The translations under genes and the position numbers were made by a program. A stretch of 64,000 bases of DNA from the IMG/VR virus record IMGVR_UViG_3300032334_002267, positions 73,310 to 137,309 of that record; one strand, 5' to 3'. Every line of letters begins with the position of its first letter. Position 1 is the first letter of the stretch. Positions 44,009-62,975 of the stretch are shown here, in pieces. The DNA comes from a virus (taxonomy: Duplodnaviria; Heunggongvirae; Uroviricota; Caudoviricetes). Below the pieces are notes generated by a model. That model was given only the letters and a program-made list of their open reading frames with translations. It did not search any database and was not told the origin of the DNA.

Positions 44009-44509
44009 TTAAAATCCAAGTTCTCCCAGATCTGCAGAAGCCGAAGCCGAGTCAGCATCGTTATTTCTTTTTAATATATCCCAGAGATCCGGTGTCTTTT
44101 TTAGTATTGAAGCAACTTTAAATCTATTTTCAAGCTTAGAAATATCACTAAGAAGAGTGTCAAAGCTTGTATTTTTAATCTCGCACACTCTTTCGTATTC
44201 GCTGTCAAAAACTTCAAAGTCAAATTTCAAGGGAGAGGGTTCAGTTAAAACGATAGAAACAAATTCTCCCGTCGGCGATTCCTCGCATCCTAGGTATGTT
44301 CCAGGTCCTTTACCTTTAGTGAAATATCCCGGAGCAATGCTTGGGGCTAATTCGATAAGCTCTTCTGAGTTTAAGGAAGGGGGTAGATTAGATTTTTGAA
44401 TATTGGTGTCGAAATGCCAAAAGTCAAACACTAAATTTCCTATAAATCTGGATCTAGATCCTAAATCATCCCTTTTTAAAAAGCTCTCAAAAAGTAAAAT
44501 ATGCTTCAT
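44009..44509 (-). CDS. paralog-family protein without LRRs (MKHILLFESF ... ADLGELGF)
   Basis: Conserved N- and C-terminal modules. Confidence 0.5.
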   Translation of the reverse strand: MKHILLFESFLKRDDLGSRSRFIGNLVFDFWHFDTNIQKSNLPPSLNSEELIELAPSIAPGYFTKGKGPGTYLGCEESPTGEFVSIVLTEPSPLKFDFEVFDSEYERVCEIKNTSFDTLLSDISKLENRFKVASILKKTPDLWDILKRNNDADSASASADLGELGF

Positions 44510-44560
44510 TACAGACTATATATCCTCCTCGGTATCATTGTATATTGGATATATACAGGA

Positions 44561-45034
44561 ATGAAATACTTATCCCTATTTGAGACCTATACGGCAACAT
44601 TAAACAGCGATTACCTGCCAGTGGTTACGTCAGTACCCCACATAAAAGCAGGTTGTGAAAGACTCGCCGAAGTTTTTTTAGACGAATTAGGCAAAGAATA
44701 CGACCTAAGGAAGGGTAAGAAATTCGATAAAGAAATAGGGAATTGCGCATGGTTTACCCTGGAGTTTTTCAGATGGTGTGAAAATCAAAGGCTTCCTGTA
44801 AAAGTTATCTATTTCCCGGAGACCTCAAAAGCTAAAGATGCTCACGTGGCTCCTTATCTACAGGGGTTTGTTATAGATTTTGCTCATAAGCAGTTTTCAC
44901 AAAATCCAAAGGAGAGATTCAAAGTTTCAGAACCTAAGCAGTATTCTAAGTATGGATATGATCCTAGTCAGGCGGATATTCTGGATGAATTTCCTAATTG
45001 GATTCAAACCATTCACCCTTTAAAGAAGAAGTAA
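44561..45034 (+). CDS. hypothetical protein (MKYLSLFETY)
   Basis: ATG at 44561, preceded by GGATATATACAGGA. Confidence 0.45.
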   Translation: MKYLSLFETYTATLNSDYLPVVTSVPHIKAGCERLAEVFLDELGKEYDLRKGKKFDKEIGNCAWFTLEFFRWCENQRLPVKVIYFPETSKAKDAHVAPYLQGFVIDFAHKQFSQNPKERFKVSEPKQYSKYGYDPSQADILDEFPNWIQTIHPLKKK

Positions 45035-45682
45035 TCACTTCTTTTTTCCCAAAAGAATTGGAATTATAAAAGAGAGTAAAACTCCTCCGGAGAAGAGAAG
45101 ATCCACGTGTTCAGTGGTTAAATCTTTTAGCCAATAAGATGCTATCAATTTAAGCCCTAAAGCTCCTATAACATAATAGGCCACTTTTTCTAAAATTGGG
45201 GTTTTTTCAAGAAGGTCTATAAAGCTGTTTGTTGCAAATCTCATAGCCAGAATTCCAATGAAAACCCCTCCACAGATAAGCCACAGGTTCGGTGTAAATG
45301 CTACAGCTGCAAAAACATTATCTATAGAAAAAACCAAGTCCATAACCTCGATCATAAAAATAGTGGACCAGAAAGCATTCAAAAATGGAATCTTAACAGC
45401 TCCGGGTTCCTTGCTACCTTCATTTTTAGATAAGGATTTCCAAGCTATATAAAAGAGGTATGCTCCTCCAAGAACTTTAAGCCAAGTGAGTTTAATAAGC
45501 CAGCTGGCAAGAACTAATGCTAACCACCTAAAAAGATATGCTCCTAGAAGTCCATAGGTTAGCGCTTTTTTGCGTTTTTCTGTTGGTAATGGTTTTACCA
45601 TCGTAGCTAAAACAGCTGCGTTATCGATGCTTAAAATGACTTCTAGAACGAATATATTTACGAGTATTAGTAAATCTGTCAT
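45035..45682 (-). CDS. TerC-family integral membrane protein
   Basis: LSIDNAAVLA and FSIDNVFAAVAF motifs. Confidence 0.7.
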   Translation of the reverse strand: MTDLLILVNIFVLEVILSIDNAAVLATMVKPLPTEKRKKALTYGLLGAYLFRWLALVLASWLIKLTWLKVLGGAYLFYIAWKSLSKNEGSKEPGAVKIPFLNAFWSTIFMIEVMDLVFSIDNVFAAVAFTPNLWLICGGVFIGILAMRFATNSFIDLLEKTPILEKVAYYVIGALGLKLIASYWLKDLTTEHVDLLFSGGVLLSFIIPILLGKKK

Positions 45683-45684
45683 TT

Positions 45685-46164
45685 TTAGTGTTTAAGGTTG
45701 AGCTTATTCTGGATATCTTTTATCTTATCAGACATCTTTGGGTATTTAATGCTCGTTTCATTTCTAATCTCAGTAACAGGGGATTCTGTTGTGTCTGAAG
45801 CTGGCCTTCTTACAACCATTCTCAACATTTTATTAGAGGATGACTCCTCGTATTTCTTTGCATCCTTTCTTAAATCCTCCAGCATAGCATAAAACTCCTT
45901 CTCCCTCTGGTAAGCATTATCTCCGCAATCATTCCTCTCCCTTCTTATTTTAGCATTAAGAGTGTCAACCTGATTCTCAAGTATTTGTATTCTAGAGCTG
46001 TTTCTTGCGTTTTCCTCCTTAAGATCCTTGCAGTCTACAGTTAAAGCAGATATAAGGGAGGGAGCTATTGTTATAATCGTAATTGAAAAAAGAAGCATCA
46101 GTAAAGCCAGGGTCTTCTGAGCCCGGGTAAACTGTTTTAGTATTTCTGAAATGTATTTAAACAT
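45685..46164 (-). CDS. membrane-anchored coiled-coil protein
   Basis: N-terminal TM helix, then heptad-like region. Confidence 0.4.
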   Translation of the reverse strand: MFKYISEILKQFTRAQKTLALLMLLFSITIITIAPSLISALTVDCKDLKEENARNSSRIQILENQVDTLNAKIRRERNDCGDNAYQREKEFYAMLEDLRKDAKKYEESSSNKMLRMVVRRPASDTTESPVTEIRNETSIKYPKMSDKIKDIQNKLNLKH

Positions 46165-46169
46165 GTTAA

Positions 46170-46856
46170 TTAAAACCCTAGATCTCCCAAATCAGCAGAG
46201 GCTTCTACCGAATCAAGATCACCTAATTTATTTTTAAGTATTTTCCAAACCTCTGGACTATTCTTTTTAAGAGAGCTCATGATTTTAAATTTATAGGGAC
46301 TCGCATAAATTAAATCTACAATTTCACTAGAATCTTCAGAATTTAATAGAGCGGATACCAGAATATATTCAATCAATCCGGGAAATGGATCTAATTTTGC
46401 TGAATTTGTGAGAATCTCTTTCATGAGTTCTGGGTTTTTTCCAGCTTTTAATTTAGCAATGTTGCTGTTGTAATTATTTCTGAATCCGATTCTTGGTAGA
46501 AGAGTGGAAATGAAGTAGTTGCTCATATTCTCAACGGCTTTATTCCAGTCATCCATAGTAACAAGATTGCACCTTCTAACTGTATAACCATCTCTTATTA
46601 TCTGACCTTTTAAAGGATAAAAATTAAAAACATGAAATGGTTTTCCGTCAATAGAAACCACAGGCCCCATTCCTAAAGTTCTTGTCCCATTCTTGTATGC
46701 AACACTACCTGTGACCCAAGATGCGGGCATAAAATTTTTAAACATCAAAAAACTTGGAAGTTTACTTAACTCCTCGTGGGAAGGAATTTCAGAAATGTTA
46801 CTAGGAAAATTGGTAGCAGCTTCAAAAAGCTCTTTAAAATTTAATATTTTTTTCAT
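46170..46856 (-). CDS. paralog-family protein (MKKILNFKELFE ... ADLGDLGF)
   Basis: Conserved termini. Confidence 0.5.
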   Translation of the reverse strand: MKKILNFKELFEAATNFPSNISEIPSHEELSKLPSFLMFKNFMPASWVTGSVAYKNGTRTLGMGPVVSIDGKPFHVFNFYPLKGQIIRDGYTVRRCNLVTMDDWNKAVENMSNYFISTLLPRIGFRNNYNSNIAKLKAGKNPELMKEILTNSAKLDPFPGLIEYILVSALLNSEDSSEIVDLIYASPYKFKIMSSLKKNSPEVWKILKNKLGDLDSVEASADLGDLGF

Positions 46857-61787: not shown

Positions 61788-61806
61788 GAGAACCCCCATC
61801 ACATAC

Positions 61807-61831
61807 AGCCTGGAGACCTCCAGGCTTTTTT
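61807..61831 (+). terminator. rho-independent terminator
   Basis: AGCCTGGAG-ACCT-CCAGGCT-T6. Confidence 0.65.
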
Positions 61832-61992
61832 GTGGTCCTAGTCACCTACGCGCCTGGACCAGGTTTCCAAAATGGCACCTGCATCCCTCTGGGGCCTTTT
61901 CGGGCCTTACTCCCCACGAGGGCCCGCCCACCAAATAGCTTATCCCAATATACATACTAGCTATAACCCTAGCCATACCCATCCTCATAGGC

Positions 61993-62403
61993 ATGAAGAT
62001 AGATAAGGCATACATAAAGCACATGAGCACACCATCACATAAAGACAAAGTGGCATTAAAGGCAAACCTACTGCCACACGCACATCACATAGGAGCACCA
62101 CAGATCAAACCCACAGATCTCACACCATTTATCAGAGCAGCCTCACACAAGGTGAACAAAGCCCTACAGAGAAGAGCCCAGGAGATCATCCTTCAGATAG
62201 AGGAGCTGCAGCAGGAGTACGAGCTCAACCAGGAGGTCTACTCGGCCAAGTGCTCCTTTGAGCCCATAGTGGGAGAGTGCTACCATCTGTACCAGAGCGA
62301 GGATGGCTCAAGGTTTATGAGTCTCATCTCACCCTCCCAGTGGAGCAAGCCACACCTGTACTCCGTGATCCTGAATGCGGACTACACCTGGAGCAAGGTC
62401 TAG
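61993..62403 (+). CDS. hypothetical protein (GC-rich island)
   Basis: 136-aa ORF; upstream CCCGCCCACC..CCAAT..ATATA boxes. Confidence 0.45.
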   Translation: MKIDKAYIKHMSTPSHKDKVALKANLLPHAHHIGAPQIKPTDLTPFIRAASHKVNKALQRRAQEIILQIEELQQEYELNQEVYSAKCSFEPIVGECYHLYQSEDGSRFMSLISPSQWSKPHLYSVILNADYTWSKV

Positions 62404-62670
62404 GCCCACCCAGGGTCCACCCTTACCCCCGTCCCCCAAACATAGTATGTTACTAAGGTAGTATGCCACAGGTTCCCCCGGCCAAGACTTAGAGGTCCCG
62501 GGGGATAGCCTCCACAGGTTCGCGTTTTAGAGGCCCTTATGGAAGCCCCTCTGTGGGCATGAGCTTCCACCCAGGGTGAAAATCCCTGATTTCTCGGATT
62601 CCCCGATTCGGGCCACCGCCTCGGTCCGGGCTTCTCCCCCAAGATCCCTCTGGGGTACCAGATCCCACGG

Positions 62671-62720
62671 TTCCCATGAAATCCCACAAATTCCCACAAA
62701 TTTCCAGAAATTCCCCCAGA
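62671..62720. repeat. tandem decamer array TCCCAnAAAT x5
   Basis: tcccatgaaa tcccacaaat tcccacaaat ttccagaaat tcccccagat; flanked by GGATTCCCCGATTCG direct repeats (about 62596 and 62726). Confidence 0.7.
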
Positions 62721-62975
62721 TACCCCGGGATTCCCGATTCGCCCCGATCTGGTCTCGGAACCGTGGGTGGCTTTCGCCCCGTTCAGAGCCTCTTAGATCC
62801 GCCAGCAGTCCCGCCTCGCCTCGCTCTACTCTCTTCTCTATGATCTCTATGCCTATGCTTCTCTTCCTCTCTAGCTATAAGAGACAGAACAGTATGGGTA
62901 TCATCTATTTGGTGGGCGGGTCCTCCTGGGAGATCCACCCCGAAACCTCCCCCTCTGGGATTCGATATATAGAGC

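Follow-up and report, generated by a model that had tools for sequence, protein, structure and literature searches.

Here we report a short DNA element, R-ATATATA-R (R, A or G; hereafter the box), that recurs upstream of genes in a 64,000-nucleotide (nt) stretch of a virus genome assigned to the Caudoviricetes (IMG/VR record IMGVR_UViG_3300032334_002267, positions 73,310 to 137,309), which as a whole is referred to as the window. The box is probably a phage-specific, single-element promoter that gives rise to leaderless or short-leader mRNAs, and to judge from the sequence it is apparently the core and only element of a promoter class in a lineage of huge phages of Bacteroidetes type. In the literature the motif was found nowhere described before. 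Transcription signals are essentially unknown in huge uncultured phages, and gene expression in Bacteroidetes, which is free of Shine-Dalgarno (SD) sequences and uses an unusual sigma-A, is poorly charted. The box would mark transcription units, fix true start codons and help to separate temporal gene classes, and would provide a compact, possibly orthogonal promoter part for Bacteroidetes.

Placement of the box

By count alone the core heptamer ATATATA is unremarkable, because dinucleotide shuffles give 19 copies and the window has 28; the remarkable part is their placement. All 28 copies are located outside gene interiors and upstream of a gene, and 16 are followed by an ATG 3-7 nt later, compared with 1.5 on average and at most 5 in the shuffles (binomial p = 5e-11). 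The conserved box that the initial annotation had described just upstream of start codons is thus real, and stronger than claimed there. Each of the 16 start-proximal ATGs opens an open reading frame (ORF), 15 of them of 73-433 amino acids (aa) and one encoding a 39-aa hydrophobic peptide. The original figure of at least 12 box-preceded genes is exceeded by these sites, and 12 further copies come in addition: ten lie 15-85 nt before the ATG of a gene (seven of these at 15-29 nt), another precedes a GTG by 3 nt, and the last is a palindromic box read in its complement (33893/33900). The range of 44.5-63 kb first given for the boxes was too narrow, as they run from 921 to 62971, with 17 of the 28 within that region; copies occur throughout the window and are not confined to duplicated junctions.

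The consensus is R-ATATATA-R, with G as the preceding base at ~70% of sites. The form GATATATAG is present in 12 copies (0.85 expected; 0 of 100 shuffles reach 12), and its orientation, which is set by the flanking bases, points toward the gene in 12/12 cases. All variants listed in the initial annotation were recovered, at 59400, 47960, 53244, 61395, 62976 and 44561. Three paralog junctions that had been called identical share the 12-mer TGCGATATATAG but differ in the bases that follow, which are GGACA-ATG, GCAAT-ATG, or GAAAA... with a 29-nt leader at the third; the junction spacer, given as 4 nt, is 5 nt. These three junctions are one duplication event and not independent counts. No conserved position was found 20-45 nt upstream of the box and no -35 element, only T-richness 3-12 nt upstream, to be set beside the -33 TTTG and the AT-rich -18/-28 signals of Bacteroidetes sigma-A promoters, and a scan of the sigma-70 type (-35/-10) gave hits no more numerous than in shuffles.

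When synonymous codons were shuffled with protein sequence and codon usage fixed, 21.9 +/- 5.5 copies of ATATATA and TATATAT were expected in the coding sequence of the window; 2 were observed, both at gene ends that overlap the upstream region of a neighbouring gene. No other of the 128 A/T-only heptamers is as depleted in coding sequence as these two, TATATAT being purged equally, and related words such as TTATATT are over-represented. Nine related loci (192 kb; the sequence examined in relatives consisted of ~20 kb pieces of contigs of 130-370 kb) contain 7 coding copies versus 76.6 +/- 11 expected, and 54 copies within the non-coding 10%. Since both orientations are purged from coding strands, the hazard would lie at the DNA level and be independent of orientation, and the box is best understood as a functional DNA-level signal under purifying selection against coding copies. 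Restriction-site avoidance was considered and rejected, as the heptamer is enriched, not depleted, between genes.

Orthologs point in the same direction. The DUF5824 ortholog in locus L001 shares the box (GATATATA-atgc-ATG) and the start codon, and the flanks do not align. Between two divergent genes, the palindromic ATATATAT forms an invariant core in six related genomes within an otherwise variable spacer; it lies 19-25 nt from the ATG of each gene and may serve both. The operon-internal window gene 35043-35747 has an ortholog in L005 that has gained a box and heads a transcription unit there.

Spacing and predicted start site

Pooled over the window and 8 non-redundant related loci, the spacers between box and ATG are bimodal, with 16 sites at 4 nt, 10 at 5 nt, 1 at 6 nt, 2 at 7 nt, none at 8-12 nt and 35 at 13-33 nt. 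Over the window and 10 related loci, 29 of the 34 start-proximal (3-7 nt) spacers measure 4 nt (18) or 5 nt (11). The first T of the box stands at -10/-11 relative to the ATG, and this placement agrees with leaderless promoters, in which a -10-type element keeps a constant distance of ~6-12 nt to the start codon; in computational work, leaderless genes are conventionally recognized by a TA-rich signal ~10-12 bp ahead of the start codon (PMC3160421, PMC6028130). The sigma-A element of Flavobacterium johnsoniae, TAHHTTTG, extends from -12 to -5, and 4 or 5 nt separate it from the start site (PMC6847099). If R-ATATATA is read as -12 to -5, +1 would fall on the A of the ATG at the 4-5 nt sites, because the spacer there equals the distance from the host sigma-A element to its start site. 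At ~80% of long-spacer sites A occupies the position 4-5 nt past the box, and an A-rich leader then follows. The bimodal distribution fits two outcomes of one promoter, namely leaderless mRNAs or SD-free leaders of ~9 nt or more, and intermediate leader lengths appear to be avoided.

Compared with ordinary starts, short spacers have A less often at -3 (38% vs 65%, p = 0.02) and at -1 (12% vs 38%, p = 0.006); a pyrimidine occupies -1 in 74%, which is not significant (p = 0.09). The early suggestion of a -10-only promoter placed for absent or very short leaders is supported in silico. The accompanying argument, that no room is left for an SD sequence, counts for little, since the leaders of ordinary genes in this genome are in any case A-rich and free of SD sequences.

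Transcription units and box-led genes

A box precedes 16 of 40 genes at the head of a transcription unit and 8 of 59 internal genes (Fisher p = 0.004), which is the preference for first genes expected of a leaderless architecture. Oppositely oriented pairs are located between divergent genes (33900/33922, 40308/40338, 44523/44549, 61318/61384), and other boxes directly follow terminator-like hairpins with T-runs (47978-48010 and 53268-53282, with three more in L012 and L015). At several sites the distance from the terminator or neighbouring gene to the ATG is 10-20 nt and the box is the sole conserved feature; no other promoter-like element was found in those short intergenic regions.

The genes led by a box in the window are of accessory or unknown function and comprise leucine-rich repeat (LRR)-like paralogs, a pterin-4a-carbinolamine dehydratase, DUF2452 and DUF5824 proteins, and small membrane or lipoprotein peptides. 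Box-led genes in the relatives include a PAS/GAF histidine kinase, a lectin-domain protein, ATP-grasp enzymes and an endolysin-like gene. No capsid, tail or other structural gene was identified among the box-led genes of the window and related loci, and the late timing suggested by the initial annotation is unsupported. There are at least five LRR-like paralogs (51536-52288, 52492-53244, 55970-56878, 56895-58196 and 58213-59400), with N-termini of the form MKH/MKN/MKR... and internal repeats of ~63 nt, and only some members are preceded by a box.

Source genome and relatives

The genes of the window include a Dda-like helicase, two RNA ligases, ClpP, glycosyltransferases and an extracytoplasmic function (ECF)-type sigma factor, and most have A-rich upstream regions without an SD sequence. 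The window is part of a huge uncultured phage with a Bacteroidetes-type host, because relatives of its helicase (61-88% identical) lie on IMG/VR viral contigs of 130-373 kb, no close cultured relative is known, and the nearest cellular homologs of the sigma factor come from Chitinophagaceae, Niabella and Cytophaga (~33-36% identity). GenBank phages gave no DNA match to 44-64 kb of the window, and a protein search with the helicase returned relatives of <30% identity only, with no annotated cultured relative by which the boxes could be tied to late genes. The region at 44.5-63 kb is lineage-variable, and no relatives of the box-led proteins 46872-47960 and 59501-60496 were found in IMG/VR.

A scan of IMG/VR for GATATATAGNNNATGAA gave, among the matches listed, mostly single, chance-like occurrences, and several sites only in L051, L110 and L111. 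In these contigs (59-179 kb) a few kb contain several gene starts of the form GATATATA-N4-ATG, and the contigs are possibly further members of the lineage.

The GC-rich island

Loci L170-L172 are the same genome as the window (99.9-100% identical over the overlap), and their sequence runs on past the window end. They cover a GC-rich island (window 59400-63700; 46-52% GC vs 36%) that was initially taken for terminal but is internal, since the genome continues, and is strain-variable. In 3.7 kb the island has 5 boxes (0.6 expected), each 4-5 nt before an ATG, and this abundance at 46-52% GC makes the box independent of base composition. At 61384-61826 a box, a single island gene and a terminator make up a complete cassette. 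The variant L170 is without the tyrosinase gene (window 53270-54846) and has a 196-nt insertion near window 60508, which contains a further GC-rich element, a box and an ATG followed by four codons only.

Four copies (0.55 expected) of a 35-60 nt GC-rich element around GGTGGGCGGG were also observed. Three of them lie 19-44 nt upstream of boxes, and an inverted pair (61891-61950 / 62893-62952) flanks the DUF2452 gene; for the element we regard a role as regulator site or as small, mobile promoter module as possible. A 570-nt GC-rich stretch at 62404-62975 is free of ORFs, has internal direct repeats (e.g. 62584-62610 / 62715-62741) and gave no Rfam match. The public gene calls of L171 omit the dehydratase and DUF2452 genes.

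Host-type promoters and the sigma factor

The ECF-type sigma factor noted by the initial annotation is present, with Sigma70_r2 and r4_2 domains. A host-type -7 element precedes its gene and is kept, in changed surroundings, in both related genomes with a sigma homolog (TACATTTG in L013, TATATTTG in L015). At the homolog in L015, the closest relative (~9960-10000), TATATTTG is followed by ccga and then the ATG, so host-type promoters in this lineage can also take leaderless geometry. Just past the window end, L170 carries ~20 small genes on one strand (12000-20540). TAHHTTTG is found 20-47 nt upstream in 7 of these 20 genes versus 5 of 99 window genes (p = 0.0006), and a box before 0 of 20 versus 25 of 99 (p = 0.007). 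By its sequence the array resembles an early region under host-type promoters, beside an early-expressed sigma gene and a second promoter class.

Of the six near-invariant positions of the sigma-A consensus the box fits only A-11, T-8 and T-6; it differs from TAHHTTTG by T-12 to G/A, T-7 to A and G-5 to A, which bears out the distinction from the Bacteroidetes sigma-A consensus drawn at the outset. Because the two promoter classes serve separate gene sets, the box class probably depends on a phage-made specificity factor, which may be the sigma factor at 1626-2159, another sigma-like protein or a phage polymerase. That the first of these reads the box is no more than a hypothesis. ECF sigma factors normally recognize bipartite promoters with a conserved -35 element (e.g. 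GGAAC-like) and a short GC-containing -10 element; the box is purely A/T, with nothing conserved at 20-45 nt upstream, and does not have this form.

Features of the window and of related loci (window coordinates unless a locus is named)
Feature	Position	Strand	Remarks
Box	921..927	+	Leadered; 15 nt before ATG of 943-1575
ECF-type sigma factor gene	1626..2159	-	Sigma70_r2 + r4_2; candidate reader of the box
Host-type -7 element TATATTTG	2177..2184	-	17 nt before ATG of the sigma gene
Box	12934..12940	-	Leadered; 21 nt before ATG of ATPase gene 11362-12912; second box 12999-13005
Box	21537..21543	-	7 nt before ATG of DUF5824 gene 20948-21529
Box	27223..27229	-	5 nt before ATG of lone minus-strand gene 26756-27217
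Box	27692..27698	+	Leadered; 23 nt before ATG of 27722-28597
Box	28992..28998	+	4 nt before ATG of 29003-29605
Box	33894-33900	-	21 nt before ATG of 33615-33872; divergent partner of 33922-33928
Box	33922..33928	+	4 nt before ATG of 33933-34364
Box	36605..36611	-	56 nt before ATG of 35748-36548; + strand reading is host-type TATATTTG 7 nt before ATG 36622
Box	40302-40308	-	3 nt before GTG at 40298; divergent partner of 40338-40344
Box	40338..40344	+	4 nt before ATG of 40349-41014
Box	44517..44523	-	7 nt before ATG of 44009-44509
Box	44549..44555	+	5 nt before ATG 44561 (gene 44561-45034); divergent partner 44517-44523
Box	47965..47971	-	4 nt before ATG of 46872-47960; directly after 15-bp terminator-like hairpin 47978-48010
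Box	48557..48563	-	Leadered; 21 nt before ATG of 48035-48535
Box	51521..51527	-	Leadered; 17 nt before ATG of 50670-51503
Box	52470..52476	-	Leadered; 22 nt before ATG of 49-aa lipoprotein-like ORF 52298-52447
Box	53249..53255	-	4 nt before ATG of 52492-53244; directly after terminator hairpin 53268-53282 + T-run
Box, third TGCGATATATAG copy	55959..55965	-	Leadered; 29 nt before ATG of 55621-55929
Box in 16-nt paralog junction	56884..56890	-	5 nt before ATG of 55970-56878
Box in 16-nt paralog junction	58202..58208	-	5 nt before ATG of 56895-58196
Box	59406..59412	-	5 nt before ATG of LRR-like paralog 58213-59400; GGTGGGCGGG element 19 nt upstream
Box AATATATAA	60502..60508	-	5 nt before ATG of 59501-60496
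Box	61312..61318	-	4 nt before ATG of 73-aa gene 61086-61307
Box GATATATAG	61384..61390	+	4 nt before ATG of pterin-4a-carbinolamine dehydratase gene 61395-61787; divergent partner 61312-61318
Intrinsic-terminator-like hairpin + T-run	61807..61826	+	Ends one-gene cassette 61384-61826
Box	62965..62971	+	4 nt before ATG 62976; ORF 62976-63095, 39-aa hydrophobic peptide
GGTGGGCGGG element copies	59433-59442, 61364-61373, 61923-61932, 62911-62920		
ATATATAT sites in related genomes	L001 ~3040, L002 ~5543, L003 ~3750, L004 ~4139, L005 ~959, L013 ~14360		

Interpretation

In the reading that we favour, RNA polymerase would melt the TA-rich box at about -12 to -5 and initiate 4-5 nt downstream. At about half of the sites initiation would take place on the A of the ATG, giving an mRNA that is leaderless or has a leader of 0-3 nt, and the leaderless mRNA would be translated from its 5'-terminal AUG; the other sites would yield an A-rich leader of ~9-30 nt in the usual SD-free arrangement of Bacteroidetes. 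Host-type TAnnTTTG promoters would drive a separate set, the ECF-type sigma gene and the neighbouring small-gene array. What the sequence shows directly is the motif with its fixed geometry, orientation and conservation, its purge from coding DNA, its place after terminators and the segregation of the two promoter classes; the promoter role, the precise point of initiation, leaderless translation and which factor reads the box are inferred.

Several points weigh against this reading. Promoter function and the +1 position are predictions for this phage and its relatives, and efficient leaderless translation in the host is assumed, while 87% of F. johnsoniae transcripts have leaders >10 nt (PMC6847099). 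The association with the head of transcription units is moderate, and 8 boxes lie in same-strand gene gaps of <40 nt. A reader of the sigma-70 family would be atypical, because A and not T stands at -7 if the box is -12 to -5. The link between the sigma factor and the box is weak, since ECF sigma factors normally need a -35 element and the box is without one; just two related contigs yielded a homolog of the sigma factor, a search of IMG/VR with the sigma factor as a single sequence returned nothing, and distantly related sigma-carrying phages are without a comparable density of 4-7 nt boxes (0-3 per locus).

A further-reaching reading, which we offer tentatively, regards the box as a self-sufficient promoter-plus-start-codon cassette, read by a phage factor (a retargeted ECF-derived sigma factor or an unrecognised polymerase) that ignores host promoter rules. 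It would explain why each gene of the GC-rich island has its own copy, why the cassette is duplicated and why the heptamer is purged in both orientations, and if true, genes newly captured by a huge phage could be expressed from such a cassette with no need for a -35 element, leader or ribosome-binding site.

Other explanations concern the reader of the box or its function. We consider it unlikely that the box is read by an RNA polymerase of the phage, or by some factor other than a sigma, in the manner of phiKZ-type jumbo or crAss-like phages: the relatives are phages of 130-370 kb, the element is short, AT-rich and without a -35, and its strong purge from genes is as for a self-sufficient promoter, but no polymerase-like gene was found in the 64-kb window or the related loci examined, the host holoenzyme has the same spacing of 4-5 nt, and transcripts of phiKZ and AR9 are not leaderless, with untranslated regions of 31-40 nt and 26-491 nt, respectively. 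Recognition of the box by the unmodified host sigma-A holoenzyme, as a variant promoter and not a phage-specific class, seems improbable to us. The geometry is the same as that of the host -7 element, whose 8 nt are separated from +1 by 4-5 nt, A-11, T-8 and T-6 are common to both, T-10/A-9 are permitted bases, and the T-richness just upstream is comparable to the AT-rich -18 signal of F. johnsoniae; nevertheless, three of the six near-invariant positions differ (-12, -7, -5), and true TAHHTTTG promoters occur in the same genome on a box-free gene set and are conserved (at the sigma gene, in three genomes).

That the box acts on the mRNA instead, as an AU-rich, unstructured ribosome-loading or translation-enhancing sequence, is highly improbable even though initiation in Bacteroidetes relies on A/U-rich unstructured leaders and the box is close to the AUG at half of the sites. 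The reverse complement is purged equally from coding strands, the boxes of other genes lie 13-33 nt from the start, operon-internal genes carry A-rich leaders instead, and boxes are located behind terminators and between divergent genes, places that call for the start of a new transcript. The box was also weighed as an operator for a phage DNA-binding regulator and as a processing site at which polycistronic RNA would be cut before each AUG; past strong terminators no upstream transcript would be left to process. The near-palindromic core, the fixed distance to the ATG and the boxes in 10-16 nt same-strand gene junctions would suit such roles, but both have very little chance of being correct given that the orientation of GATATATAG, set by flanking bases, is gene-directed in every copy, that each divergent gene has its own box and that the short intergenic regions hold no other promoter-like element. 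A TATA box of eukaryotic giant-virus or archaeal type was rejected, as a sigma factor, intrinsic terminators and conserved TAnnTTTG promoters are present and the distance between box and ATG is 4-5 nt instead of ~26 nt.

Comparison with known systems

In function, the proposed box promoter is closest to promoters of Thermus phages. In YS40 (phiYS40) and Lalka27a most transcripts are leaderless and begin with the A or G of the start codon, and the late promoters have a characteristic -10 element without a -35, the start site lying 6 bp downstream; in P23-45, promoters of the extended -10 kind are used once phage proteins disable -35 recognition. Like the proposed box promoters, these are phage-specific, consist of a -10-type element only, have start sites a few bp downstream and, in the case of the late promoters, occur at high density, divergent pairs included. 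They differ in sequence (TAGGGT or TG-extended TANNNT vs R-ATATATA-R) and in host phylum, leaderless mRNAs being common in Thermus whereas Bacteroidetes hosts have mostly leadered ones, and their start sites were mapped experimentally, whereas those of the box are predicted from sequence. If the favoured reading is true, phage-driven leaderless expression would extend from Thermus to a phylum with mostly leadered mRNAs; since the concept is already established, this would add a new sequence, phage group and host group to a known strategy but no new principle.

Leaderless promoters of Actinobacteria and Deinococcus-Thermus, which form 'group C' of GeneMarkS-2, have TANNNT ~10-12 bp before the start codon. 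They share with the box a -10-like signal at a fixed short distance, a location at the first genes of operons and the coexistence of leadered genes. The box, however, is not TANNNT, is virus-specific and occurs in a phylum whose hosts GeneMarkS-2 classes as 'A-rich non-SD' ('group B', A-rich non-SD leaders), not as leaderless. The Bacteroidetes sigma-A -7 element (TAnnTTTG / TAHHTTTG) resembles the box in its length of 8 nt, in A-11, T-8 and T-6, in a weak or absent contribution of -33/-35 and in a distance to the start site equal to the box-ATG spacer of 4-5 nt; unlike sigma-A promoters, many box sites have a start codon where +1 should be, and the gene set differs.

T4 late promoters, which are read by gp55/gp33/gp45, are -10-only, TA-rich and present in many copies before individual genes, and the box is like them in these respects. 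The likeness to T4 suggested by the initial annotation does not extend further. The T4 late consensus TATAAATA is not enriched in the window (5 copies vs 6.6 expected, all inside genes), T4 late mRNAs have leaders with SD sites, and no gp55-like gene was seen in the window, whose only sigma factor has regions 2 and 4 and is ECF-type. Short AT-rich phage-specific motifs, in large phages or phages with their own specificity factor, are also known from phiKZ, AR9 and phiEco32/7-11, which infect Proteobacteria or Firmicutes, unlike the Bacteroidetes-type host here; the phiEco32 sigma factor (gp36) reads a single -10-like element.

Other features of the window

Three tRNA matches, at 6187-6280(+), 6711-6817(+) and 49946-50047(-), measure 93-107 nt compared with the usual 72-90 nt. 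ARAGORN calls only the one at 6187-6280(+), with an odd ATC anticodon, and in the match at 49946-50047(-) the D-arm region and the T-arm are set apart by ~30 additional nt; introns or insertions are possible. Genes for a tyrosinase (53329-54804), a pterin-4a-carbinolamine dehydratase (61395-61787) and a DUF2452 protein (61993-62403) lie within 9 kb and form an unusual accessory metabolic trio for a phage.

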